Shown: positions 7,269 to 35,425, numbered from the stretch's first letter. The stretch is DNA of 62,004 nucleotides from Arcobacter sp. (GCA_002733885.1 NVXJ01000001.1:109298-171301); one strand, 5' to 3'. The notes: generated from the letters alone by a model not told the origin. Translations and numbers: made by a program.

Positions 7269-8389
7269 TCTTTTAAGACCTCTTCAATAGCATCTTCAAA
7301 GGTTTCTAGAACATATTCTTGTGACCATTTTACACCAGCTAAAGAAGCCTCTTCATACTCTTGAGTATCCTTGATATAATAAGAAATCTTTTGAGAAATA
7401 TCTTTAGCATCTACTTCTGCTATTTTTCCTCGTGAACCATACCCTATCATATAGTTTACACATGATACGTTTGTTGAGATAGGTACACATCCCCAAAACA
7501 TAGCTTCAGCCACTACTTTAGGCCAGCCTTCTGACTTTGACATTAAAATTAAAAAATGTGATTTTTGATAATAACTTTTTACATAATCTGCATTTTGATT
7601 ACCATGTAAGGTCACATAATTTCCTAAAGCATTGTTTTTTATATACCTTTCAATTTCAGTCCTCATCTTACCATCACCCATTACATCTAAATGGATATCA
7701 ACCTTGTTTTCAACTAATTCTTTAACGACTTCTAATGCTAATACAGTACGCTTACCTGGATTAAATGAACCTACAAAAAGAAGTTTAATAGTTCCAATAA
7801 GTTTTCTTGGTTGGATTGGTATAATTTCCTCTTTTTTATATGTTGCAGTAAAGAATGGAAGAACATTCTTTGTTTGATGTGGCCATTCACCATAAACTAA
7901 TATCTTCATCTTTTTAGAGCAACTTGTGTTAGCTAAAATCTTTTTTTGGAGTTTATAAGACCATGCTTGACCTTGGGCATTTGGATTCCAATTTCCTGCA
8001 TATTTTGCTGTTTTACATTTACTTGGAAAAAATATTTGTGCAATAGAACCGAGTAAGCCCATATTTCCGGGACATCTAAGGTGAATATGCTCTGCCCAAA
8101 ACATTGCCTTAAGAATTACAAAAAACATAAATGGAAGTTTAAGTAATGTTAATAGTTTTTCTTTTCTTGAGACTAAACTAAACAAAGGTACTTCATCAAA
8201 AATGATATTATTATGAGCATACGCTAAATCAATTTTTGAGACTTCTAAGTTTCTATCAATAGGGCCGACAATTTTAACCTCATCAACATGTTTTAACCAC
8301 AGGTTCATCTCTTTTATATAAGGCCCATAACCATAAAGTTTATCATCTAAACTTTTATGTAGAACATGGGTAATAATTAAAAATTTCAT
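7262..8389 (-). CDS. GT-B fold glycosyltransferase (GT4-like)
   Basis: SKSEGWPKVVAEAMFWGCVPISTNVSCVNYMIG matches the GT4 C-terminal nucleotide-sugar binding region. The N-domain is divergent. Confidence 0.75.
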   Translation of the reverse strand: MKFLIITHVLHKSLDDKLYGYGPYIKEMNLWLKHVDEVKIVGPIDRNLEVSKIDLAYAHNNIIFDEVPLFSLVSRKEKLLTLLKLPFMFFVILKAMFWAEHIHLRCPGNMGLLGSIAQIFFPSKCKTAKYAGNWNPNAQGQAWSYKLQKKILANTSCSKKMKILVYGEWPHQTKNVLPFFTATYKKEEIIPIQPRKLIGTIKLLFVGSFNPGKRTVLALEVVKELVENKVDIHLDVMGDGKMRTEIERYIKNNALGNYVTLHGNQNADYVKSYYQKSHFLILMSKSEGWPKVVAEAMFWGCVPISTNVSCVNYMIGYGSRGKIAEVDAKDISQKISYYIKDTQEYEEASLAGVKWSQEYVLETFEDAIEEVLKEC

Positions 8390-9747
8390 ATTTTCATTCT
8401 TTCATCGTATATTAAATATTTTTTGTTAAAGATCTTTGGACCAGCAAAAATAAATGCCATAAATATTCCACCTATGACGCTCATTCCTGCATTTCCCATT
8501 ATTGAAAACATATATGCAATAGTAAAATACAGTAACATTTCCTGCTTCTTCAAATATAACTTAAAGTTTACATAAGCTGCACGAAGTAAGACATACATAA
8601 AAATCGAAAAAGCAATAATGCCATACTCTACCGCTAATTTAAGGTAAAGCGTATGTATCACGTATGCTTTTTCACTACCATGAACATACCCAAAATCTTT
8701 TACATAATTTTTTCCTTCATCATGTAAAAATCCCCTAGAGTTGGGACCATAGCCAAGTAAAACGTCAAGTAAAGGTGCCGTATCTAAATAGTGAAGTCCT
8801 ACTTGCCATTGAACAAAGCGTGAAGTGGTTACCTGATTTAATGAACGATGGCTTGTATCTAGTTTTTTAACATAAAATTTTTCTATAGTATTAAAATATT
8901 TATCGTCTAAAATGGTAAAGGAAAGCGTTAACATCGCTAGCATAACTAAAAAATATTTCAAAAAATCTGCTCTATTATTTATTCCATAGAAAATTAATGC
9001 AAATAACATAGATATCATATTTGTGCGTGAAGTAGATAAAAAAAGCAATATAAACACAACAATAGTCAACCCGAGTAATATTTTAGAATCACGTTTAAAC
9101 ATAATAAGTTTACCTTGGTCAAGTAGTAAAAATATCAATGAAATTACTAATAAAGATGCTGGTCCACTAGGGTCACCCCCTATTACCCAACCTACTTCAG
9201 TGGGAGTTGCAAATCTATTTGCAATATTTGGAAACATAACTATATAAATCGCAATACTTGAATATATAAAATTTCGCATTGCAAAAGCTCTATATTCAGG
9301 AAAGTATAATAACATTGATATTAGAACTAAGGTCGTACCTAACTCAATTGTCTTAATAAAATACCCTACTTTAACACCTTCAATTATACCTACAGCCACA
9401 AAAATAATAAAAAAGAGTAATATAAAAAAAATATTTTTATTACTTATTGCCCGATTCAGTTCTTTTTTCATTGTAAAGAATGCCAATATTATCACTACAA
9501 TAGTTATCATGGTATAACCACTTTCAAAGAATATAAAAGGGCGTATAAAAACGACAAGTGGTGAAAACCCTATGATCCATGCAATCATAAAAGTGCCACC
9601 TATATTACGATTATAAAAGCTATAAACAACCCCACCTAAAAGAGAAAGACCAAGAAATATTCCAGCATACCTAAAATGAACGCTTAACATAAGTAACTCT
9701 GTAATCAGAAGAACAGCTAAAAATGATTTTGTATAATTACTCATCAA
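8386..9747 (-). CDS. wzy: O-antigen/capsule repeat-unit polymerase (Wzy / O-antigen-ligase-like membrane protein)
   Basis: 453 aa and almost entirely hydrophobic, with at least 10 predicted TM helices and one larger loop (DTSHRSLNQVTTSRFVQWQ...HDEGKNY). Located inside the glycosyltransferase run, next to the Wzx operon partner. Confidence 0.7.
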   Translation of the reverse strand: MMSNYTKSFLAVLLITELLMLSVHFRYAGIFLGLSLLGGVVYSFYNRNIGGTFMIAWIIGFSPLVVFIRPFIFFESGYTMITIVVIILAFFTMKKELNRAISNKNIFFILLFFIIFVAVGIIEGVKVGYFIKTIELGTTLVLISMLLYFPEYRAFAMRNFIYSSIAIYIVMFPNIANRFATPTEVGWVIGGDPSGPASLLVISLIFLLLDQGKLIMFKRDSKILLGLTIVVFILLFLSTSRTNMISMLFALIFYGINNRADFLKYFLVMLAMLTLSFTILDDKYFNTIEKFYVKKLDTSHRSLNQVTTSRFVQWQVGLHYLDTAPLLDVLLGYGPNSRGFLHDEGKNYVKDFGYVHGSEKAYVIHTLYLKLAVEYGIIAFSIFMYVLLRAAYVNFKLYLKKQEMLLYFTIAYMFSIMGNAGMSVIGGIFMAFIFAGPKIFNKKYLIYDERMKI

Positions 9748-10855
9748 TGTACTTTAACATACGTTTATTATAAGTTTTTTCACTGAATAATTTTGTTCGC
9801 TCATAAAAGTATTCTTGATATTTCAACATTTTTTCTTCACTAGCAGTTATTAATTCATCAAACTTATCAAAAAACTCATCATCATTAAAACGAAGTTCTT
9901 CTTTGTCTACAATCTCTTTTTGTCCACCTGAATTATGAACAAATGGGATTGTTCCACTCATAATTGCTTCAACTGTTGTAATACCAAAATGTTCATTAAC
10001 AGCAGGAAAAACATATATCTTTGCATCTTTTAAAGCCTTTTGCAAAACATCAAACTTTTCATTAATAACAAATTTCACATTATTTAATTTATATTTTTCA
10101 ACTAAGTCTTTTAGTGATTGATAATACGGTTCTTGATTAGATTCAACAGTTCCTAAAATACTAAATACTTCATCAGGATATTTTTTTGCTAATTCTATTA
10201 GCATTTCAGGTCGTTTATACGGAACAATTCTAGATAAAAAGACAATACCACTTTTATTACTAAAGCCTTTATCTGTATTTATCTCAAATGCATTAGAGGG
10301 ATACACAACTTCTAATCTTTTATCATGTGCTTCATAAAATAAATCTGACGTAAACTTTGCGTTAATAACTGTATTTTTAGTATTTCCACTAAATTCATAA
10401 ATAGGATAAAAAGGTTTAATAAATAATTTATATATTGCCTTAAAAAGCAAAAACCTATACTTTTTTGCACCTTTTTGAGGGTTTAACTGTGGTAAAAAAG
10501 GTGGACCCGATAGATAAAAAGCATAAGGGGTGTCATCATCTTGCAAGTAGTTATGTCTAAAAGTATATATAAAATCATATTTTTGTTTTAGCTTTGAAAA
10601 TTTAACCATATTAAATGGCCATATTAGATATCTGATTGATGCTTTTTGTTTGGCTATAAAAGCCGTTGAAAAAGGAAAATAATATTTTTCAAAATTTACA
10701 TTTAAGTTATTTTCTTTAATAATATTTGGGTTCGGCTCATCTACCCATATAATTGTTGGTCTAATACCCCTTGCATTTAAACCTTTTATTAAAGAAATTA
10801 CACAGGTTTGGACACCCCCATATTGTGTTAAAGTAAAAATTATACCAATTTTCAT
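9737..10855 (-). CDS. family 4 (GT-B) glycosyltransferase
   Basis: NEHFGITTVEAIMSGTIPFVHNSGGQKEIV (E-x7-E region). Confidence 0.85.
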   Translation of the reverse strand: MKIGIIFTLTQYGGVQTCVISLIKGLNARGIRPTIIWVDEPNPNIIKENNLNVNFEKYYFPFSTAFIAKQKASIRYLIWPFNMVKFSKLKQKYDFIYTFRHNYLQDDDTPYAFYLSGPPFLPQLNPQKGAKKYRFLLFKAIYKLFIKPFYPIYEFSGNTKNTVINAKFTSDLFYEAHDKRLEVVYPSNAFEINTDKGFSNKSGIVFLSRIVPYKRPEMLIELAKKYPDEVFSILGTVESNQEPYYQSLKDLVEKYKLNNVKFVINEKFDVLQKALKDAKIYVFPAVNEHFGITTVEAIMSGTIPFVHNSGGQKEIVDKEELRFNDDEFFDKFDELITASEEKMLKYQEYFYERTKLFSEKTYNKRMLKYIDE

Positions 10856-16752: not shown

Positions 16753-18081
16753 TTATGACTTAATAATTTCAGAAAAAAATGAGCTTCTAAGACTTTTAAG
16801 ATACTTCATATTTAAATCATACACAGGGCCAAATAGTTTTGTTTGTTCGCTAATAATCTCTAAAAAATTATTTTCTATATGTAAAAACATTTCTTCTTGC
16901 TTAAAGAACAAAAACTCTTTAGCCTCAAAACTTTGTTTTTTAAAAACCATATTTAACACACCAAAGTTTTTATTATAATAATATCTATAATCACCTAAAA
17001 CGAGCTTCATAGTATTTACAACAGGTGTTTTTGCCCCTAATGCAATAACCATCGTATGATATCTTGTACCAATCACTAACGATGCATTAGAAATAAGATT
17101 ATAAACATCATTTAGTTCAGGAAAGCCTTTTTCATTAATATCATACATATGAAACATCTCCTTATTTGGAGTTAATGTTTTAAAATACTTTCCTTGATTC
17201 TCACCTCCGTTACCTTTTTGAAACGGTAAAAATACAATTTTTTTATTATATTTTACTTGTAATGTCCTTAGCATACTTATAATATTTATTTTGTACTGTT
17301 CAAGTTTTTCAATAGATACATATGTTTCTATTACAACATAACTGTTTTTTTCTAACCCAAGATTATTCTCACTATTTATAATTTTTTTGTTTAACACTAG
17401 TAAATCATCCGGTATAACTACAATTGTCTTTTCTTTAATCCCCATATCATTTAAGTATGACTCAGATAAAAGTTGATCTCTAACCCCAAATTTTGTATTT
17501 TTAAGCCCTTTAAAAAACATTCGATAAAATTCATGAGATGAATCAAATGGACCATAACTGTTACCCGTAAAAAATATTTTTTTATTGAGTTGATTTGCGA
17601 TAAGTATTGGAACCATAATTTTATATAAGTCTTCTTTTCGTGACCAACTTGACCATAATATATTAAAATATCCTCCACCGTTAACGATTAAAATATCTAG
17701 CTCTTCTATACTCTTTTTTAAGGTTACATATCCATCAACTCTGTCTAACAGCTCTAAAGGAGTTAAATGTTCAAAAGGCTTAGCTACACGCATAAGGTTT
17801 AAATATCGGATGCCTTTACGTGTCAATTTATTTATCACTTTATTTATAAATGAACGTTTTTCACTTTTCTTATTTTGTGGCTTGAACTTAACATTAACTT
17901 TTTCTATATTGTAATCATCAAAGTATTCATTTACAATATTATCAAACTCAGTAACACCTTTTCTCTTATAATAAAAGAATTTATACTGATGTTTATTACC
18001 TAGGTCGTAAACGTTATTAATTAACATACCGTAATCACCAAAATTCACTTCAGATATTGGACCTGTAATTCCTATTTTCAC
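16753..18081 (-). CDS. putative polysaccharide pyruvyl transferase family protein
   Basis: ILIVNGGGYFN and GTRYHTMVIALGAKTPVV resemble the PS_pyruv_trans (CsaB/WcaK-like) signature. Assigned from motif memory only. Confidence 0.55.
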   Translation of the reverse strand: MKIGITGPISEVNFGDYGMLINNVYDLGNKHQYKFFYYKRKGVTEFDNIVNEYFDDYNIEKVNVKFKPQNKKSEKRSFINKVINKLTRKGIRYLNLMRVAKPFEHLTPLELLDRVDGYVTLKKSIEELDILIVNGGGYFNILWSSWSRKEDLYKIMVPILIANQLNKKIFFTGNSYGPFDSSHEFYRMFFKGLKNTKFGVRDQLLSESYLNDMGIKEKTIVVIPDDLLVLNKKIINSENNLGLEKNSYVVIETYVSIEKLEQYKINIISMLRTLQVKYNKKIVFLPFQKGNGGENQGKYFKTLTPNKEMFHMYDINEKGFPELNDVYNLISNASLVIGTRYHTMVIALGAKTPVVNTMKLVLGDYRYYYNKNFGVLNMVFKKQSFEAKEFLFFKQEEMFLHIENNFLEIISEQTKLFGPVYDLNMKYLKSLRSSFFSEIIKS

Positions 18082-18087
18082 TTTAAC

Positions 18088-19389
18088 TTAATCCTCAAAC
18101 AATAATTGCATATTATCTAAACTATACGCATACAACCCATGTTGTATAGCTTCTTTTCTCTCTTGAAATGAATCATCTATTAACAATGAATTCTTTTTCA
18201 TGTATTTATATTTTTTGTCATCATCTTTAATATGAATAATCTCATGAAAAACTGTTGTTAACCCAAATTCTTTTAAGGTACTTTCTAAATTACCTTTTTT
18301 ATTTTTTGTAATTAATATAACCTCGTTGTTATTATTTTTTGCTTGAAAAATAAGTTTCATAATATCTGTATTAATATATTTTTCATCTAAATAAAGGGTA
18401 TCATCAAAATCTATATATAAGGTTTCATAAAAAATATTGTGTTTATATCTTGGTAGAAGTGCTCTTGAAAGTGATAAAGAAACATCGTTAACATAAACTT
18501 CAACAGTATTCCCCATTGCTTGAAAAAGAGCAAGTTCAATAAAATTAATTCCTTTTGCTCTATTAAGCATCATCGTTCCAGAAACACGAGGCCCCACTTC
18601 TAAAAGCTTTAATTTTCCATGTTTGTCATATTTCATTTGAAAGAACCAGATTCCATGTAAACCCATTTTCTTACTTATAATAGAGGCGTATTGATAAAAC
18701 TCTTCTAATAAACTTTTATCTTCTATGAGTCTTGATAAAACAGAAATACCACGAGTTGTTTTTTCCCTTGTCCGTGGACCTGAATAAAGAACTTCTCCAT
18801 TATCAGAAAAACAGTCAATCGTAAATTCTGCCCCCGTTAAATGTTCCATCAGTACATAGGTGGCAATATCATGTTTATTAAAGTATCCATTAAACTCATG
18901 TTCTGTTTCTAAGCATAAAGAGTTTAAAGCACCTTGCCCTTTTTTTGGCTTTACAAATACTGGAAAACACACTTCTTCTTGATTTTTATATACATCTGCT
19001 AAAGGAATAATATCCTTGAAATATTTGTATGTAACATCTTTAAAACGGACAACTTTATTCGTATGTCTATCTTGACCAATCACTTTAGCTTCAAGCTGCT
19101 CAGTAATAAGACTTAGTTCATAAGCCACATCATCATGCGCAGGAATAATAAAGTCAATATTATGTTCACTAATAAACGCTTGCATAATTTCAGTAAAGCT
19201 TTCATTATCTGCATAAGGCAACTTATACACCTCTTGATTTAAAAACTCAGCATGAGATGTTTTTATACTTGATGCGAAAACCACTTTAAAATATTTATTA
19301 TGCTTTAACGCATTAAATATCTCATTTGATATTTCCGTTCCAGCAGGAAAAACCAATACATTTTTTTTATTCATTTTATCATTATCCAT
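18088..19389 (-). CDS. ATP-grasp ligase fused to a C-terminal HAD-type phosphatase-like domain
   Basis: ATP-grasp motifs: FPVFVKPKKGQGA, MEHLTGAEFTIDCF, LLEVGPRVSG (aa 1 to about 315). HAD motifs: DFDDT (aa 327-331, nt 18397-18411), VILITK, LLIDDS (aa about 322-433). Confidence 0.8.
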   Translation of the reverse strand: MDNDKMNKKNVLVFPAGTEISNEIFNALKHNKYFKVVFASSIKTSHAEFLNQEVYKLPYADNESFTEIMQAFISEHNIDFIIPAHDDVAYELSLITEQLEAKVIGQDRHTNKVVRFKDVTYKYFKDIIPLADVYKNQEEVCFPVFVKPKKGQGALNSLCLETEHEFNGYFNKHDIATYVLMEHLTGAEFTIDCFSDNGEVLYSGPRTREKTTRGISVLSRLIEDKSLLEEFYQYASIISKKMGLHGIWFFQMKYDKHGKLKLLEVGPRVSGTMMLNRAKGINFIELALFQAMGNTVEVYVNDVSLSLSRALLPRYKHNIFYETLYIDFDDTLYLDEKYINTDIMKLIFQAKNNNNEVILITKNKKGNLESTLKEFGLTTVFHEIIHIKDDDKKYKYMKKNSLLIDDSFQERKEAIQHGLYAYSLDNMQLLFED

Positions 19390-19403: not shown

Positions 19404-20093
19404 TTATACCAAATCATAACTAACTAGCATTTTTTTTATATTACTAACTGAATTAAACATTAGAACATCAATTAAAGACAATTTAGCTATAAAATCATCA
19501 TTAAACTGTTTATACACTATCTTCTCTTTATTAATAAATTTTAAATCAACAGTTGCTTCAGCAAATTTTAGTTTACAATACAAGTTTTTACCACCTACTG
19601 CATTCACATATTCTTTTTCATTTAAACGATTACAAATATCAATTATTCGTTCATCCATCATTAGAGAATTGTCTTTTTCAATCTCACTAGAATATAAAAT
19701 TTTTGTATCCATTTCTAAATAAGCAGCAACTCTAATTAATGCATCGCCTAAAAATTTTGCAAGATTTTCTTCTTTATTTAAGAGTATTTTTTCTATTAAT
19801 GGAAAAGCATCTTCAAAATGAGGTGCTTTTTTATAACTTCGTCGTATTGTTTCTAAAAGTTTTGCACCATTCGCACCAACTTCAATTTCATTAATAAGCT
19901 TATTTTGACTTGCGCCCTTAAGTTGAAGCGAAATCTTAAATTCTTGATTATTCATTAAAATAATATTTTTATTAATAAAACCATTTTTAATGTAATGTAA
20001 ATCATCCGCTATAACATAGATATCAACTGCATTAAGTAATTGAAAGTACCCGATATATGGGAAAAAATAGGGTTGCATAATCGCTATACTCAT
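19404..20093 (-). CDS. WbqC-family protein
   Basis: N-terminus MSIAIMQPYFFPYIGYFQLLNAVD is the hallmark of the WbqC-like family found in O-antigen loci. Confidence 0.8.
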   Translation of the reverse strand: MSIAIMQPYFFPYIGYFQLLNAVDIYVIADDLHYIKNGFINKNIILMNNQEFKISLQLKGASQNKLINEIEVGANGAKLLETIRRSYKKAPHFEDAFPLIEKILLNKEENLAKFLGDALIRVAAYLEMDTKILYSSEIEKDNSLMMDERIIDICNRLNEKEYVNAVGGKNLYCKLKFAEATVDLKFINKEKIVYKQFNDDFIAKLSLIDVLMFNSVSNIKKMLVSYDLV

Positions 20094-20239
20094 GCAATAC
20101 CTTCTTCCATAAAAAGTTCTACTAAGTTTTCAGCATTACTCATTTTTTCAACTGAATCAAATTTTAAAAATGCTTTATAACTCTTACTTACCCCTAAATA
20201 AAGACTCTTATTCTGTTTTACTTTATTATTTTTGTGCAT
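20090..20239 (-). CDS. unlisted small ORF (49 aa), translationally coupled to wbqC
   Basis: ATG at 20239 is preceded by AGGGGGA. It encodes MHKNNKVKQNKSLYLGVSKSYKAFLKFDSVEKMSNAENLVELFMEEGIA. Its TGA overlaps the wbqC ATG (ATGA). It fills an otherwise unexplained 184-nt gap in a gap-free operon. It is below the 60-aa cut-off of the ORF track. Confidence 0.45.
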   Translation of the reverse strand: MHKNNKVKQNKSLYLGVSKSYKAFLKFDSVEKMSNAENLVELFMEEGIA

Positions 20240-20277
20240 ACTATTTCATTCCCCCTATATTTAACTTCTATTAAAGA

Positions 20278-20793
20278 CTAGTTATTAAGTTTACTTAAGA
20301 CAATTACATCATGGTGTTTTCCCTTTTTAAAAACTGCATTTCGTAATCTACCTTCTTTATCAAATCCACATTTTTCATGAGTACGTAAAGAGGCTGTATT
20401 ATAAGAAAGAACATGTGAATATATTCGATGTAAATTACGTTCTTCAAAACCATACTTTAAGATTTTAGAAATTGCCTCAGTTCCTATACCTTTTCCATAA
20501 AGGGATGCTTCCCCAAGTAAAATATGCAATTGAGCACTTCTATTTATATTATCAATATCTGTTAAATAAATATTACCTACATATTGATCTGTTGCTTGTA
20601 AACATATTGCTAGAACAATTTCTGTCCCTTTAGCATTGTAAATTTTATCTTCTACCCACTTTTTTTCATATGCTTCTGATACAAAGTAATGGAGTCCTCC
20701 AAGTTGAACCGATATACTTTCATCTTTGCGCCACTTAATGGAAACCTTGTAATCATCTAGTTCTAATGCTCTAAAATAAATCAGATCTTGCAT
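20278..20793 (-). CDS. GNAT-family N-acetyltransferase (RimJ/RimL-like)
   Basis: 171 aa. ...LHILLGEASLYGKGIGTEAISKILKYGFEERNLHRIYSHVLSYNTASLRTHEKCGF is the acetyl-CoA binding core. Confidence 0.85.
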   Translation of the reverse strand: MQDLIYFRALELDDYKVSIKWRKDESISVQLGGLHYFVSEAYEKKWVEDKIYNAKGTEIVLAICLQATDQYVGNIYLTDIDNINRSAQLHILLGEASLYGKGIGTEAISKILKYGFEERNLHRIYSHVLSYNTASLRTHEKCGFDKEGRLRNAVFKKGKHHDVIVLSKLNN

Positions 20794-21771
20794 TTATATC
20801 TCCTCTTTTAAAAAAACAGTAACAACATCAATAATTCTTTGCATATCTTCTATCTCATAACGTTGATCTATTGGTATTGGCAACAAGTATTTTACAAAAC
20901 TTGCTTCTACTTGTTCTTGAGTTTCTACATAATCTAAAACTTCATTCCAGTATGTTGGTACATATATCTTTTGCTCAATTAAAAAAGACCTTAATCCCTC
21001 TTTTTCAATCCATAAAGGGTATACCATTGGTCCAATAATTTGACCTTCTCTTATCTTTAGCTTATTAATAGAAATAAAAGTGGCATGCAAATATAAAAAG
21101 TTTCGTTCACGTCTAAGTTTAATCTTTTCATAATCTATTGATGAAAGAATTTTTTGAGTTAAAACAGACATTTTCTTTAAAGGTCTATGACACATCTCTT
21201 TATTATGATTTGCATACAGTGAATAGGCTTGAGAAGCTTCATTTTCTGTTCTTGTAAGTAAGGCGGCACAACGGTCATAGGACATCTCAAATTCCAACTC
21301 TTCATCTAACTTCGTACTTGAGTATACATACCCTCCATCTGCTACACCAAAGAACTTGCGAGGAGAGTAGCAGTTATTTGTATTTTTAATTGGCTGCTTA
21401 AAAAAGGCTTGAGTATTGTCTATAATAAGCCTCTCACCATACATCTTTGCCAATTTATTTATATACTCATTTTTAATACCAAAATAATTAATATAAATAA
21501 GTTTTTCATTATCCTTTATATCTTGAGGAAGTAAGTTTATAATTTCTAAATTTTCATTAATTGCATAAAACACATACTCAATACCAAGTGTAATTACTGG
21601 TTCAATTACAGTACCGCAAGTAAAATATGGTACATAAACTTTTTGTGTACTAGATGCTTTTAAGACATACGCAATAGCATTTCGACCACTGTTTACCTTT
21701 GCTGTGGCATCTGTATACAACTCATTTCTTACATCAAATTCAAATTCAAAGTAACCGCCAATTTCTCTCAT
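20794..21771 (-). CDS. short DegT/DnrJ/EryC1-like PLP-dependent enzyme
   Basis: NSGRNAIAYVL...VYVPYFTCGTVIEPV, LIIDNTQAF and YSPRKFFGVADGG (candidate PLP Lys) follow the DegT fold order. Shorter (325 aa) and more divergent than the neighbouring transaminase. Confidence 0.55.
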   Translation of the reverse strand: MREIGGYFEFEFDVRNELYTDATAKVNSGRNAIAYVLKASSTQKVYVPYFTCGTVIEPVITLGIEYVFYAINENLEIINLLPQDIKDNEKLIYINYFGIKNEYINKLAKMYGERLIIDNTQAFFKQPIKNTNNCYSPRKFFGVADGGYVYSSTKLDEELEFEMSYDRCAALLTRTENEASQAYSLYANHNKEMCHRPLKKMSVLTQKILSSIDYEKIKLRRERNFLYLHATFISINKLKIREGQIIGPMVYPLWIEKEGLRSFLIEQKIYVPTYWNEVLDYVETQEQVEASFVKYLLPIPIDQRYEIEDMQRIIDVVTVFLKEEI

Positions 21772-21783
21772 CTATAAAATACC

Positions 21784-22887
21784 TTACTTTTTCTCAAAAT
21801 AGATATCATGTTCTTTATGATAATCACAAATAATATTAATAATTCTATCTTGAACTTCTAGTTCAAGCCCAGGGTAAATAGGAAGTGCCAGTATTCTCTC
21901 AGACACATCTCTTGAGACAGGCATTACATCTGAATCTTGAGTATAAGGAAGCGTATCTAAAGAAGGATAAAAATATCTTCTTGGATTGATTCCATTGTCT
22001 TTTAAAATCTTCACTACCCTTAAAAGTTGTTGCTCATTTTTAAAAAGAATGGGGAAATAAGCATGATTATTTGTACAATTTTCATTCTTTTTTTGAATTT
22101 CTACGATCCCAGTTAAAGCATTGAAATAACGTTCATATAATTCTTTACGTTGCTCTTGAATGAGTTCTATCTCATCCAATACGCATAGCCCCATAGCCGC
22201 TTCAAATTCATTCATTTTAGCATTAGTACCTAAGGCTTTAACTGTTTCAGGCCCATCTATCCCAAAGTTGATAAGGTATCTGGCATCTTGAACAAGTCTA
22301 TCATCATTTATAATTAAAGCCCCACCTTCAATAGAATGAAATATTTTCGTTGCATGGAAACTAAGAGTCGAAACATCTCCATAATTTAAAAGGCTTTCAT
22401 TCTTATAATTTTCTCCAAAGGCGTGTGCTGCATCATAAATTACTTTTAAGTTATGCTTATCTGCAATTTTTTCAATACTTTCAACCTCACAAGCATTACC
22501 AAATACATGAACAGGAACTATTGCACTCGTCTTATCTGTGATTCTTTCTTCTAATTTTTTTGGGTCTAAGTTTAAACTTTCTTTATCTATATCACAAAAT
22601 ATAGGTTTAAGTCCATTTGACACTAAAGAACTTGTCGTTGCTACAAAAGAAAAAGGTGTTGTTATAACCTCACCTTTTAATTTTAATAATCTATATGCAA
22701 TTTCTAAAGCAACCGTACCATTTGAAACAAGAACAATATTTTTTACCCCTAAAAATTTTGCTAAGCGACTCTCTAGCTCTTGAACCAAAGGACCATTATT
22801 AGTCACCCAACCACTTTCGTAGATCTTGTCTATATACGAAATATACTTCTCTTTATCTGGCATATATGTTTTTGTAACATTAATCAT
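21784..22887 (-). CDS. DegT/DnrJ/EryC1/StrS-family sugar aminotransferase (probable dTDP-4-keto-6-deoxyhexose 4-aminotransferase)
   Basis: GWVTNNGPLVQELE, VSNGTVALE, IYDAAHAFG and SFHATKIFHSIEGGALI (PLP Lys). The start is taken at ATG 22887 (MINVTKTY), which overlaps the rmlB stop. The track's 22911 start lies deep inside rmlB. Confidence 0.9.
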   Translation of the reverse strand: MINVTKTYMPDKEKYISYIDKIYESGWVTNNGPLVQELESRLAKFLGVKNIVLVSNGTVALEIAYRLLKLKGEVITTPFSFVATTSSLVSNGLKPIFCDIDKESLNLDPKKLEERITDKTSAIVPVHVFGNACEVESIEKIADKHNLKVIYDAAHAFGENYKNESLLNYGDVSTLSFHATKIFHSIEGGALIINDDRLVQDARYLINFGIDGPETVKALGTNAKMNEFEAAMGLCVLDEIELIQEQRKELYERYFNALTGIVEIQKKNENCTNNHAYFPILFKNEQQLLRVVKILKDNGINPRRYFYPSLDTLPYTQDSDVMPVSRDVSERILALPIYPGLELEVQDRIINIICDYHKEHDIYFEKK

Positions 22888-23893
22888 TATATTTCTCCAA
22901 ATACCAATCAATTGTTTTCACAATCCCCGTACTAAAATCTTCATCGGCTTTCCAGCCTAGTTCTTTTTCTAACTTAGTAGCATCAATAGCGTAACGTCTA
23001 TCATGTCCTGCTCTATCTTCGACAAAGCTAATTAAATCCTTATACGATTTATCTGTGGGAACCTTCTCGTCCAAGATACTACAAATTGTATCTACAATCT
23101 GTAAGTTCGTTCTTTCATTATGTCCACCAATGTTATAAATATTAGCTTCTCTTCCCGTATGATAAACTAAATCAATTCCCTTACAATGATCAAATACATA
23201 TAACCAATCTCTAATATTTTTTCCATCACCATAAATAGGAATATTATCTCCTGATAAACATTTGCGAATAATCGTTGGAATAAGTTTTTCATCATGCTGC
23301 TTAGGACCATAATTGTTTGAGCAGTTAGTTATGACTGTATTCATTCCGTAAGTTTCTTGATAAGAACGCACTATCATGTCACTACTGGCTTTTGAAGCCG
23401 CGTAAGGTGAATTTGGGGCATAAGGTGTTTCTTCCGTAAAAAGATCTGTCTCATTTAAAGTTCCATATACTTCATCTGTCGAAATATGGTGAAAACGGCA
23501 TTTTTCATATCCTGCTTTAAAGCTAAATGGCTTTTTCATCCATTTCTTGTAAGCAACATCTAGCAGTGTAAAAGTACCATTAACATTTGTTTCAATAAAA
23601 ACACCAGGATTTTTAATTGAATTGTCTACATGTGATTCCGCAGCAAAATGAATAATGCCTTTAATATCATACTCATCAAAGATAAACTCAACTAAGTCAC
23701 GATTACAGATATCACCTTTGATAAACTTGTAATTTGAATCTTTTTCAATATCATTTAAATTCATTAAATCACCTGCGTAGGTTAGAAGATCTAAGTTAAT
23801 AATTTGGTATTCTGGGTATTTATCTAAAAAGTAAGGGACAAAATTTGAACCTATAAATCCAGCACAACCTGTCACTAAGATTGATTTAGACAT
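22880..23893 (-). CDS. rfbB: dTDP-glucose 4,6-dehydratase
   Basis: [37 protein letters not shown] 23893 (MSKSILV) has AAGGAAG 6 nt upstream. The longer track start lies inside rmlA. Confidence 0.95.
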
Positions 23894-24800
23894 TTTCATC
23901 TTCCTTACAAGGTTGACAGTAATGACCTTCCTCTGCTCTACGTAACAGGTATTGTCCATATTGGTTTTTCTTTAAAGGCTGAGCAAGTTCAATTAATTGT
24001 TCTTTTGTAATATAGTTCATCTCAAAGGCAATTTCTTCTAAACAAGCTACTTTTAAACCCTGACGTTTTTCAATAGTCTGAATAAACTGCCCTGCATCTA
24101 AAAGACTCTCATGCGTTCCTGTATCTAACCAGGCATATCCCCGTCCCATAATTTCAACTTTTAAGTTTTTTTCTTCCAAATAAGCTTGATTAATTGAGGT
24201 TATCTCTAACTCGCCACGGTCAGATGGTTTTACTTTTTTAGCTTTTGAAACTACATCATTAGGATAAAAATACAAGCCGACAACCGCATAATGACTTTTA
24301 GGATTTTCAGGCTTTTCTTCTAAAGAAAGCACTTCCTCTTTGTTATTAAATTCAACCACCCCATAACGTTCTGGATCATTTACATAATAACCAAATACAG
24401 TCGCTTGCTTATTATTTTGTGCATTAAGTACAGACTTATTTAACATCTCCACTAATCCACCTCCATAAAAGACATTATCCCCTAACACAAGGCAAACATC
24501 ATCATCTCCTATAAAGTCCTCTCCAAGAATAAAAGCTTGGGCTAAACCATCAGGCGAAGGCTGAATAACATAGTCAAAATACATACCAAGGTCTGAACCA
24601 TCTCCAAGAAGTTCTTTAAAACGTGGTAGGTCATGTGGCGTTGAAATAATTAATATTTCTTTTATCCCCGCAAGCATAAGAACAGAAAGTGGATAATAAA
24701 TCATTGGCTTATCATAAAGTGGTGCTAACTGCTTACTAATACCTTTAGTAATTGGATATAGACGTGTTCCACTTCCTCCAGCTAAAATAATTCCCTTCAT
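23886..24800 (-). CDS. rfbA: glucose-1-phosphate thymidylyltransferase
   Basis: [25 protein letters not shown]...GLAQAF...[13 protein letters not shown] is the canonical RmlA. Confidence 0.97.
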
Positions 24801-33128: not shown

Positions 33129-34391
33129 TTACAATTTACCATCACTATATTCAAGGACTGACTTAATGTCATAAATTATTGTATCGTTACCATTTTTCAG
33201 TGCATCCATATCAATAGTTTTAAATTTATCATGTGAAACAGCAAGGACAACTGCATCATACTTCCCAGCTTTCATAGTAGCTTCGTCTATTAAGCCAAAA
33301 CCATATTCTCTTTGTACATCATCACTGTTAGCCCATGCATCATAAACAGACACATTACATTCGAAATCTTTTAGTTCATTAATTACATCAATTACACGTG
33401 AATTTCTAATATCTGGACAATTTTCTTTAAAGGTGATTCCAAGTACCAGAACATTCGATTTTTCAACTCTATGACCTTTTTTAATCATAAGCTTAATCAC
33501 TTGATTAGCCACATAAATACCCATGTTGTCATTAAGTCTACGACCTGCTAGAATAATTTCAGGGTTATAACCAATTTCTTGTGCCTTATGTGTAAGGTAA
33601 TAAGGGTCAACACCAATACAGTGTCCGCCAACAAGACCTGGCTTAAATTTCAAGAAGTTCCATTTTGTACCCGCTGCCTCTAAAACTGCATTTGTATCAA
33701 TACCTAATTTGTTAAAAATAATCGCTAATTCATTTACAAAAGCAATATTAATATCTCTTTGAGAATTTTCAATAACCTTAGCTGCTTCAGCAACTTTAAT
33801 ACTTGGTGCTAAATGTGTTCCTGCAGTAATAATACTTTTATAAAGGTTATCAACTTTTATAGCAATTTCTGGAGTTGAGCCCGCAGTTACTTTTAAAATT
33901 TTTGCAACTGTATGTTCTTTATCACCTGGATTGATACGTTCAGGTGAGTATCCACAAAAGAAATCCACATTAAATTTAAGGCCAGAAAATTTTTCTAAGA
34001 CTGGCACACAATCTTCTTCTGTTGCCCCAGGATAAACAGTTGACTCATAAATAACAATATCACCCTTATTTAGAACCTTCCCTATGCTCTCGCTCGCTTT
34101 AAATAAAGGAGTTAGATCTGGACGCTTATTTTTATCAATAGGCGTAGGTACCGTAACGATAAAGTAGTTACATGACTTTAAATCATCTAATTGATTTGTA
34201 TAAGACATCATAGGAGCATCTTTTAACTGTTCTTCATTCAACTCTAGCGTTCTATCATAACCTGAACGTAATTCATCAATACGCCATTGAGCGATATCAA
34301 AACCAACTGTTTCGTACTGTTTTGCAAATTCTACTGCTAAAGGTAAACCCACATATCCTAAACCAATTACTGCTATTTTAATTTGACTCAT
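33129..34391 (-). CDS. UDP-N-acetyl-hexosamine 6-dehydrogenase (WbpO/TviB/VipA type nucleotide-sugar dehydrogenase)
   Basis: [26 protein letters not shown]...[12 protein letters not shown] and [12 protein letters not shown]. Adjacent to its usual epimerase partner. Confidence 0.85.
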
Positions 34392-35425
34392 TATTTTCCC
34401 TTAATATTTTGAATATACCAATTGATTGCTAGTTTCATACCTTCATCAATTGTTTGAGTTGGCTCATATCCAACAAGTTCTTGCGCCTTAGATATATTTG
34501 CATTAGAATGACGAATATCACCTTCTCTAAAATCTCTGTAAACTGCTTCTTTTTTACTAAAATCTTTAAGGTTATTTCTTAACTCTTTATTAATTAATTC
34601 ATACAATTCATTCAAAGTTGTTTGCCCACCAACAGCAACATTAAATGCTCCACCAAAAGCTTTTTCATTCTTAGTAGTTCCGGCTAACAAGTTCATTTGA
34701 ATAACATTATCTATATAACAAAAATCACGACTCGTTTCACCATCACCATTAATAAACACAGTTTCATCATCTAGTAAAGAACCCACCCACTTTGGAATAA
34801 CCGCTGCATAAGCACCATCTGGGTCTTGACGACGACCAAATACATTAAAATAACGTAAGCCTACACATTCCATTCCATAGGTTCGTGTAAAAACTCCCGC
34901 ATAAAGTTCATTTGTAAACTTCATTACTGCGTAAGGTGAAAGTAAGTTACCTGTGCGTTCTTCAACCTTTGGCAATTCAGCAGAATCTCCATATACAGAA
35001 CTTGAAGAAGCATAGATAAAGCGCTTAATGCCCTCGTTCTTAGCGGCTGTCAACATATTTAAAAAACCCGTTATATTTGACAGATTAGAAGTAATAGGGT
35101 CTGCAATAGAGCGAGGAACAGAGCCTAGAGCGGCTTGATGTAAAACTATATTTACACCATCACATGCTTTTTCACATACACTATAGTCACTAATATCACC
35201 TTCAATAAATTTTAAATTTTTATATTTATTTTCTCCAACACTTTGTTTTATCATGTCAAGGTTTTTTTGGTAGCCTGTAGAAAAATTATCTAAACCTACC
35301 ACATTTTGATTATGTTTAAGTAAAAACTCTGCTAAATTGGATCCTATAAAGCCTGCAATTCCTGTAATTAGCCAAGTTTTCTGTGTCGTTTTAAATTCAT
35401 TTATTAAGTCTGTGAATACACTCAT
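34391..35425 (-). CDS. UDP-HexNAc(A) C4-epimerase (WbpP/TviC/VipB type SDR)
   Basis: [59 protein letters not shown]. Confidence 0.85.

Follow-up and report, generated by a model that had tools for sequence, protein, structure and literature searches.

In Campylobacter jejuni HS:2 the ATP-dependent amidoligase Cj1438C joins serinol or ethanolamine phosphate to glucuronate, after which the HAD-family protein Cj1435 carries out the dephosphorylation (PMC11800397). Here we describe a gene in which comparable activities appear to be fused, an ATP-grasp ligase with a small HAD phosphatase-like domain, located at 18088..19389 on the minus strand of a 62,004-nucleotide stretch of Arcobacter sp. DNA (GCA_002733885.1 NVXJ01000001.1:109298-171301), which as a whole is called the window throughout. 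The preliminary description of this gene, prepared from the sequence of the window, had pointed to the HS:2 order of events, in which a phosphorylated amine is first ligated to glucuronate by an ATP-dependent amide ligase and the phosphate is then removed by a separate HAD phosphatase, and this account is accurate. The HS:2 pair, which works with Cj1436 and Cj1437, resembles the fusion in having an ATP-dependent amide ligase, a phosphorylated partner and a HAD protein, in serving a surface polysaccharide and in having DegT-family genes nearby. The two systems also differ in several respects. Cj1438C and Cj1435 are separate proteins, whereas in the window both activities reside in one polypeptide. 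In HS:2 the sugar (glucuronate) gives the carboxylate and the small molecule the amine, while the context of the fusion points to the reverse. Cj1435 has a mass of about 25.8 kDa, as compared with a capless HAD domain of about 110 residues in the fusion, and searches against Pfam and PDB chains revealed no sequence relationship beyond the superfamily; no Cj1438 chain turned up among the PDB matches by sequence or by fold.

Two further systems are relevant. In the type B flagellin glycan of Clostridioides difficile the ATP-grasp gene CDR20291_0245, located beside a sugar aminotransferase gene, is genetically required for the amide-linked acyl chain on the amino-dideoxyhexose (PMC5207246). Its likeness to the fusion is by description: CDR20291_0244 is FemAB-like, _0245 is a 'carbamoyl-phosphate-synthetase-like' ATP-grasp and _0246 is followed by the FdtB-like _0247. 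The sugar in that glycan is Fuc3N and the chain is taurinyl-Ala-Gly (PMC5207245), unlike the 4-amino sugar that we propose for the window. Neisseria has PglB2, in which an ATP-grasp and a phosphoglycosyl transferase are fused and which was co-inserted with 'ORF8'; it makes the 4-glyceramido sugar GATDH, 4-glyceramido-2-acetamido-2,4,6-trideoxyhexose (PMC11130364, PMC6959607). There the ATP-grasp takes the place of the N-acetyltransferase that usually modifies the 4-amino group of a 4-amino-6-deoxy sugar. The fusion protein differs from PglB2 in carrying neither a Bac_transf domain nor any transferase fusion, and no priming transferase was seen among the window genes scanned. Moreover, the sugar nucleotide of PglB2 is of the UDP-bacillosamine type and that of the window of the dTDP-Qui4N type.

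The acyl groups carried on the nitrogen of rare amino sugars define serotypes as well as phage receptors and epitopes recognised by the immune system, and the enzymes installing groups beyond acetyl, formyl and coenzyme A (CoA)-derived acyl are mostly unknown. The N-acetylserine of E. coli O114 is carried by Qui3N. It is amide-linked in the O antigen of that strain (PMC7685785), and the O antigen of Pragia fontium bears D-glyceroyl on the 4-amino group of QuiNAc4N (PMC10609480). The genetic basis of the N-glyceroyl group on the pseudaminic acid of Tannerella has been called 'a major challenge' (PMC5378307). We propose, with a probability of roughly 0.55, that the two-part enzyme of the window N-acylates a dTDP-4-amino-4,6-dideoxyhexose with a phosphorylated acid, 3-phosphoglycerate being the first guess, and then dephosphorylates the product. 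ATP-grasp and HAD chemistry in glycan decoration is known as such; new are the fusion, the very small HAD domain and the probable reversal of polarity.

Results and discussion

Domain structure and conserved residues

The gene is an ATG-start open reading frame (ORF) encoding 433 residues, present in a single copy in its genome. Its product is referred to as P0001; other P-numbers denote proteins of the same family and L-numbers the genome loci compared. An alternative start at M6 (ATG at 19374) would give 428 residues, and a public protein collection holds a 428-residue version with 100% identity. Conservation was counted in an alignment of 267 full-length members, which are 29-100% identical to the window protein.

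On sequence and model, residues 1 to about 310 (18460..19389, minus strand) are a bona fide ATP-grasp ligase domain, consisting of a PylC-like N-domain and an ATPgrasp_Ter-type core, as delimited with Pfam and NCBIfam profiles, Foldseek and conservation. The curated Pfam model PF15632 is passed with ease (80.9 bits against a cut-off of 29.1, E 9e-23), which settles in favour of the ATP-grasp assignment the profile search that had been suggested for this half. It is the sole Pfam match above threshold, accompanied by a weaker match to the PylC-like N-domain PF21360 (E 2.5e-4). The NCBIfam model NF009405 (PRK12767, 'carbamoyl-phosphate-synthase-like') covers residues 10-321 with E 9e-20, at 70.9 bits against an equivalog cut-off of 390. 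The only PDB chains matching P0001 by sequence are 2pn1 and 3vot (L-amino-acid ligase). An AlphaFold model of the full-length protein (pLDDT 90.7, pTM 0.88) gave 2pn1 as its best Foldseek match (E 3e-18, TM to target 0.76), followed by biotin carboxylases and PylC. The PRK12767 proteins, 2pn1 among them, and PylC are thus the best relatives of the N-terminal 310 residues in both sequence and fold. PylC, the 3-methylornithine--lysine ligase, couples an amino-acid carboxylate with an amine as an amide, and 2pn1 is without an assigned function; unlike the fusion protein, neither kind of protein has a HAD domain.

The ATP-grasp motifs quoted in the preliminary description, FPVFVKPKKGQGA (residues 142-154), EHLTGAEFTIDCF (residues 182-194) and LLEVGPRVSG (residues 262-271), were all found where it had placed them, as were the HAD motifs described below. 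K147 is present in 266 of the 267 members and E188, R206, E264 and R268 in every one. By analogy, these residues, among them K147 (the Lys after strand FVKP) and E264 (the Glu in the L-E-x-x-P-R strand), would serve in nucleotide and Mg binding.

Residues 312-433 (18091..18456, minus strand) carry the capless, C0-type HAD phosphatase-like domain, recognised by predicted fold and motifs. Motif I, DFDDT, spans residues 327-331 and lies exactly at nucleotides 18397..18411; D327 would be the nucleophile and D329 the general acid/base. Motif II, VILITK (residues 357-362, 18304..18321), contains T361. The motif III lysine is K393 (18211..18213), invariant in three alignments and part of a Lys-rich stretch at residues 392-399, while motif IV, LLIDDS (residues 402-407, 18169..18186), provides D405 and D406 and is followed by a family-specific F-x-E-R. 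All four motifs are encoded on the minus strand, and motifs I, II and IV were assigned by position and conservation. D327 is kept in 266/267 members, D329 in 265/267, T/S361 in 267/267, K393 in 264/267, D405 in 266/267 and D406 in 260/267, so that the catalytic Asp, whose loss from orthologues had been named as evidence against a HAD domain, is retained. S407, E410 and R411 are near-invariant as well, giving the C-domain a D-D-S-F-x-E-R signature of its own. D406 aside, each of these residues of the two domains' catalytic sets occurs in no fewer than 264 of the 267 members across this range of identity; for this reason both look catalytically intact and under selection.

Profile searches were less telling for this half than for the ligase. 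In Pfam the C-terminal part reached HAD_2 with E 0.054 and Hydrolase with E 0.06, the best scores of 14.0-14.2 bits falling below the respective cut-offs of 23.8-26.4. The NCBIfam Cof subfamily model TIGR00099 scored 22.8 bits (E 5.9e-5) against a cut-off of 137, and comparison of domain profiles with PDB sequences gave no significant match for the HAD half. Weak matches to PF00702 were found in 23 of 27 orthologous C-domains. When the C-domain was modelled alone (residues 312-433) from a domain alignment of 41 loci, a confident model was obtained (pLDDT 95.1), with a five-stranded Rossmannoid alpha/beta core in which strand 1 leads into a short hairpin, and without a cap; in model numbering the hairpin, or flap, is formed by short strands at 18-28 after a strand at 12-16. 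The significant fold matches of this model are all HAD proteins, namely MDP-1 (1u7p, TM 0.72), 2pr7 and the T4 polynucleotide kinase (PNK) phosphatase domain. The best of them, MDP-1 (1u7p, 2wm8) and the T4 PNK phosphatase domain (2ia5), have TM values of 0.65-0.72 and have in common with the C-domain the DxDxT motif, the Thr/Ser, the Lys, the acidic pair and the lack of a cap, whereas identity is 9-15% and the C-domain occurs almost solely as the tail of this ATP-grasp family. Predicted fold and motifs, rather than a curated sequence threshold, therefore confirm that the C-domain is a HAD core without a cap, its nearest neighbours in fold being MDP-1 and the T4 PNK phosphatase. The earlier assignment of ATP-grasp plus HAD is upheld for both halves, by a curated Pfam threshold for the first and by predicted fold and motif conservation for the second, although the curated HAD models that it had been expected to match were not reached.

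Occurrence of the fusion and of separate ligase-phosphatase pairs

A word-indexed search returned 602 relatives, the best 120 of which are all 422-445 amino acids long. When the C-domain only was used for an exhaustive search, 545 proteins emerged, each standing for a cluster at 50% identity; among the best 150, almost every one has about 425 amino acids and the domain at residues ~300-430, and the shorter ones are apparent gene fragments. Contigs of one genome per species contained 175 relatives of the fusion protein, and the best 80 of these 175 loci come from Campylobacterota, Bacteroidota, Pseudomonadota (Gamma- and Alphaproteobacteria), Desulfobacterota, Bacillota, Actinomycetota, Acidobacteriota, Chloroflexota, Planctomycetota, Saccharibacteria and Woesearchaeota. 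The family thus comprises at least 545 clusters in more than 12 phyla, archaea included. Cultured organisms with an orthologue include Zhongshania aliphaticivorans, Flavobacterium difficile, Buttiauxella noackiae ATCC 51607, Polynucleobacter nymphae and Flexistipes sinusarabici. A fusion derived from a sequencing error, or a pair of genes that is separate in all relatives, had been considered beforehand; both are ruled out by hundreds of full-length orthologues of 422-445 amino acids with the halves in frame across phyla.

No full-length orthologue was present in those genomes searched among 40 relatives of the window genome, 16 of them from the same genus. This scarcity is the patchy pattern usual for polysaccharide loci. 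A link to a known O-antigen structure was sought through E. coli, but none of 5,426 genomes of that species matched the Citrobacter and Buttiauxella orthologues at the DNA level. Some longer members have additional domains: a methyltransferase in front (P0254) or behind (P0205), or a FemAB-like acyltransferase behind (P0194). In P0173 the region before the ATP-grasp-HAD unit shows a weak GT-D-like match.

The preliminary description had not recognised the fusion as a described enzyme. In agreement with that, neither a paper describing an ATP-grasp-HAD fusion nor a characterised member was found in the papers searched, Pfam, NCBIfam or PDB, and the relatives are publicly annotated as 'ATP-grasp domain-containing protein' or 'carbamoylphosphate synthase large subunit short form'.

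Related ligases are also found next to phosphatases encoded by separate genes. In such split pairs the gene for an ATP-grasp protein of about 320-330 amino acids comes immediately before, and often overlaps, that for a capped HAD of 208-234 amino acids. One example is a Burkholderiales capsule locus (L091/L099, the pair at L099 7273-10354), which contains a priming transferase, ATP-grasp, capped HAD, a formyltransferase-like gene, DegT and a PglF-like dehydratase. It is PglB2-like by gene order, not Neisseria PglB2 itself; among 401 Burkholderiales genomes sampled we found this PglB2-like split locus (L091) and no identifiable Neisseria locus. Its ATP-grasp has the same Pfam make-up as P0001 and aligns with it over 301 residues at 22% identity (E 3e-12), whereas the HAD proteins are not specifically related (hhalign probability 9%). 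The window's own family provides a further split pair (L104 1366-2938), and its own genus a less clear one (L103 350-2046), where the HAD reads DFADT and not DxDxT. Ligases of this ATP-grasp type hence recur beside unrelated phosphatases in amino-sugar pathways. Three other Burkholderiales loci (L092, L090 and L093) have an ATP-grasp of the Ter-operon type, the namesake of PF15632, followed by a protein of about 390 amino acids; in L092 an ORF starting with a DxDxT motif (FADLDDTLF) comes next, which is another recurrent ATP-grasp/HAD pairing.

Gene context and the proposed reaction

Neighbourhoods were compared in 80 loci, in which ORFs were called and clustered; 69 of them hold a complete fusion gene. 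A DegT-family gene occurs in 55 of the 69 and adjoins the fusion gene in 44, as opposed to a Ugd-type dehydrogenase gene, which is nearby in just 2. In the three closest relatives (L001, L003 and L004; 57-60% identity, all Campylobacterota) the order is RmlA-RmlB-DegT-fusion with nothing between.

The fusion gene of the window lies within a long same-strand run of polysaccharide genes, all those named here being on the minus strand. The genes rmlA (23886-24800; TIGR01207, 480 bits, above cut-off) and rmlB (22880-23959; TIGR01181, 462 bits, above cut-off) would, according to these strong family matches, supply dTDP-4-keto-6-deoxyglucose. They are followed by a DesI-like DegT 4-aminotransferase gene (21784..22911; PF01041, E 1e-95), presumed to make the amine substrate, whose best NCBIfam match is TIGR04427 (DesI) and whose best PDB match is 2po3 (E 5e-60). 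DesI (2po3), the dTDP-4-keto-6-deoxyglucose 4-aminotransferase, is also the best match of the DegT of L001. Both in L001 and in the window this DegT comes after RmlA/RmlB with no RmlC or RmlD and no other consumer of the 4-keto sugar. A uronic acid and the 4-amino sugar made next door had both been put forward as acceptor, and the counts, together with the frequent position of DegT directly after RmlA/RmlB, favour the 4-amino sugar over the uronic acid.

Other neighbours are consistent with such a role. The partners of the fusion gene in L007-L011 include NeuB- and NeuC-like genes, i.e. a nonulosonic-acid pathway, in which the equivalent step acylates a 4-amino trideoxyhexose. Methyltransferase genes adjoin or follow the fusion gene in about 15-19 loci, and from these adjacent methyltransferases, from the fused ones and from the fused FemAB-like acyltransferase it follows that the product carries a modifiable group. 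Across the 80 loci no recurrent neighbour beyond DegT and the methyltransferases hinted at the acid donor.

In ATP-grasp catalysis a carboxylate is first turned into an acyl phosphate, from which the acyl group is transferred to an amine. Because the conserved partner puts the amine on the nucleotide sugar, the small substrate should be an acid, and because the phosphatase is obligate, this acid should be phosphorylated. With the amine coming from the sugar, the phosphate would be placed on the carboxylic-acid partner, a phospho-hydroxy-acid or phospho-amino-acid, and the amino-alcohol phosphate favoured by analogy with HS:2 becomes an unlikely substrate. The logic of ligation followed by dephosphorylation, which the preliminary description had suggested, remains the best reading. 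It draws support from the HS:2 pair, from the related ATP-grasps beside unrelated phosphatases in amino-sugar pathways, and from the resemblance in gene order between L091/L099 and the PglB2 system.

The reaction could proceed in three steps. Judging from the strong family matches, RmlA, RmlB and the DesI-like DegT would first provide a viosamine-type dTDP-4-amino-4,6-dideoxyhexose. The ATP-grasp domain would then activate the carboxylate of the phosphorylated acid as acyl phosphate and form an amide with the sugar 4-amino group, as ATP-grasp chemistry and gene context suggest. Finally, the fused capless HAD would hydrolyse the phosphate ester on the new N-acyl group, a step to which the intact DxDxT, T/S, K and DD residues and the obligate fusion point. 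Capless HAD members have open active sites and normally accept bulky substrates, so the lack of a cap fits action on a bulky nucleotide-sugar product rather than on a small metabolite.

As to the acid, 3-phospho-D-glycerate is our best guess, on account of the glyceroyl precedents (PglB2/GATDH and Pragia fontium), and the product would be an N-glyceroyl sugar. Activated by the ATP-grasp, it would yield an acyl phosphate chemically identical to 1,3-bisphosphoglycerate. The main alternative is O-phosphoserine or a similar phospho-amino-acid, which would give an N-seryl sugar; the amide-linked N-acetylserine of E. coli O114 is the precedent here. In many relatives a methyltransferase may then modify the product.

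Several points weigh against this proposal. Every step of it is inferred, and the phosphatase activity is predicted from motifs and modelled fold, the HAD half being under every curated sequence threshold. The acid is a guess by analogy, and the PglB2-like ligase with which the comparison can be made is just 22% identical. We know of no published viosamine with an N-glyceroyl group. Within the stretch examined per locus, 14 of the 69 loci have no DegT. In addition, the window encodes WbqC and GNAT proteins that compete for the same amine, so the direct acceptor there may be an aminoacyl amine.

Alternative explanations

The last point concerns a block of three genes wedged between DegT and the fusion gene (19404..21771, minus strand), which the closest relatives L001, L003 and L004 do not have: a 325-amino-acid protein without a Pfam family, identified as an ORF (20794-21771), a GNAT (20278-20793) and a WbqC (PF08889, 19404-20093), the latter two assigned by Pfam. 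The N-acetylglycine of E. coli O121 is carried by Qui4N. It is amide-linked in the O antigen (PMC7685785), and the O121 cluster (L084) runs rfbB-rfbA-DegT-WbqC-GNAT-wzx onwards, with DegT-WbqC-GNAT at 7933-10161. The route of E. coli O121 and Shigella dysenteriae 7 to N-acetylglycyl-Qui4N employs the same set of rmlA, rmlB, DegT (of the VioA type), WbqC and GNAT as found in the window but has no ATP-grasp/HAD gene, so that the fusion enzyme of the window is an addition to the WbqC route. Since the O121 chromosome holds no orthologue of the fusion (the best match, E 0.002, is at an unrelated locus), WbqC and GNAT appear to suffice for the N-acetylglycyl decoration in that strain. As DegT, WbqC and GNAT are the only O121 candidates for this group, WbqC, to which PF08889 assigns no function, is a strong candidate for the glycine-adding enzyme.

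It could accordingly be supposed that, in the window and a few other loci with WbqC, this protein (with the 325-amino-acid one) first adds an amino acid such as glycine to the 4-amino group of the sugar and the fusion enzyme acylates the amine of the latter with a phospho-acid, followed by dephosphorylation. Apart from the O121 precedent, in which DegT, WbqC and GNAT do the whole work, this is favoured by the joint occurrence of DegT, WbqC, the 325-amino-acid protein and a fusion-family member in L107 (Paenibacillus) and L035, by the fusion of a family member with a FemAB-like domain (P0194), and by the type B flagellin glycan of C. difficile, where FemAB-like and ATP-grasp proteins are assigned to taurinyl-Ala-Gly on Fuc3N (PMC5207245, PMC5207246). 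Nevertheless, WbqC and the 325-amino-acid family occur in just one of the 80 loci each, which means that the family-wide enzyme works without them and that such capping is not its general role. Furthermore, in the closest relatives the fusion gene comes immediately after DegT, and the window GNAT would have no evident amine to act on. We regard this explanation as unlikely, and take WbqC/GNAT to be an acylation module separate from the fusion enzyme, the window combining the two. The outcome might be the sugar in two versions that differ in acylation, or a single sugar with a two-part acyl chain.

We also considered the GNAT as a sign of a free amine on the product of the fusion enzyme, and rejected this, for the window GNAT is present in no related locus and goes with the 325-amino-acid/WbqC block. 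The 325-amino-acid protein has a faint DegT-like N-terminal match (E 0.033) and belongs to a family with 3,121 matches, some of them fused to GNAT (461 amino acids); it probably takes part in amino-sugar N-acylation. In the Paenibacillus locus L107 a member of this family comes after WbqC, with a 428-amino-acid fusion-family member nearby, and in Arcobacter sp. YIC-80 one comes after a different, LAL-type ATP-grasp.

A reverse order of events would have the HAD domain dephosphorylate 3-phosphoglycerate, phosphoglycolate or phosphoserine first, and the ATP-grasp ligate the free acid to the amino sugar. The HADs include many phosphatases of small molecules, those for phosphoglycolate and phosphoserine among them, a fused enzyme could hand a hydroxy-acid in short supply straight to its ligase, and the split systems L091 and L104 have capped HADs, the kind which usually acts on small molecules. 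The fused HAD, however, is capless, and from general knowledge of HADs such members normally take bulky substrates; besides, in Cj1438C/Cj1435, the one proven system, the phosphate is removed after ligation. Dephosphorylation ahead of ligation therefore seems quite improbable to us.

The ATP-grasp could also act as in HS:2 and activate a carboxylate carried by a sugar, be it that at C6 of a uronic acid or, for instance, that of a pyruvate ketal, for amidation with serinol or ethanolamine phosphate, after which the HAD would dephosphorylate. This logic is proven for Cj1438C and Cj1435 (PMC11800397), and the DegT-family enzymes of HS:2 produce amine phosphates. The window does contain the genes of a Ugd-family UDP-sugar 6-dehydrogenase (33129-34391) and an epimerase (34391-35425), identified by family matches on the minus strand about 14 kb upstream of the fusion gene and part of its large locus, and because of them the window polymer probably also contains uronic acid. 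A pyruvyl transferase-family gene (16753..18081, minus strand; PF04230, E 6e-26), which would introduce a carboxylate, lies 6 nucleotides downstream of the fusion gene, and directly downstream in five relatives as well. Set against this are the 2 loci in 69 with a Ugd-type gene compared with 55 with DegT. The DesI-like DegTs after RmlA/RmlB in L001 and the window, with neither RmlC nor RmlD, are needed as sugar aminotransferases. Also the matches of P0001, confined to 2pn1 and 3vot in the PDB and to PF15632 plus the weaker PylC-like N-domain in Pfam, speak against amidation of a uronate. Taken together, we give this explanation little chance.

Least probable of all, and hardly credible in view of the near-perfectly kept catalytic set in 267 members, unexpected for a purely structural domain, and of the DxD form of motif I, the phosphatase/mutase signature of the HAD superfamily, is that the HAD-like domain, instead of being a phosphatase of the pathway, serves in structure or oligomerisation, acts as a phosphotransferase or mutase, or proofreads by hydrolysing the acyl phosphate, even though all curated HAD sequence thresholds were failed, the domain is very small (~110 residues) and the family-specific invariant residues F381, S407, F408, E410 and R411 have no assigned role.

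Significance of the fused family

Turning back to N-acylation of a 4-amino sugar by a phosphorylated acid, we tentatively extend it, at somewhat less than even odds, to the whole family. The fused enzymes might represent a general and so far unrecognised route by which hydroxy-acyl and hydroxy-aminoacyl groups (glyceroyl, seryl and methylated forms) are put on 4-amino-6-deoxy sugars and nonulosonic-acid precursors in bacteria and some archaea, with a phosphorylated central metabolite as the direct acyl donor and without thioesters of CoA or carrier proteins. If this were true, a single type of enzyme would account genetically for decorations of the N-glyceroyl type, the biosynthesis of which has been described as unknown. 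The family is widespread, gut Clostridia and Bacteroidia included, and its members are single compact polypeptides. The predicted substrates can be made enzymatically with RmlA, RmlB and DegT, which renders the fusion enzyme directly testable. On confirmation, annotators would gain a rule predicting a class of glycan decoration, and glyco-engineers a CoA-independent way of amino-sugar acylation.

Other features of the window locus and its relatives

A gene of the pyruvyl transferase family stands directly downstream of the fusion gene also in the five unrelated loci L001, L003, L020, L042 and L052, a recurrence that hints at a functional link between the two. In the window the run continues after the pyruvyl transferase with two GT2 genes, a Wzx flippase gene, GT4 genes and a Wzy-like gene. 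The dehydrogenase-epimerase pair is found in the Arcobacter relatives L004 and L106 too, where it is directly ahead of rmlA.

Cytidylyltransferase, LicD and phosphonopyruvate-decarboxylase-like neighbours, met with in some of the loci, look like separate decoration modules. In a metagenome-assembled genome of Sulfurimonas (L002 3859-4932) a phosphonopyruvate decarboxylase-like gene, recognised by eye, and a small cytidylyltransferase gene are located just downstream of the fusion gene, which suggests a phosphonate decoration module next door.

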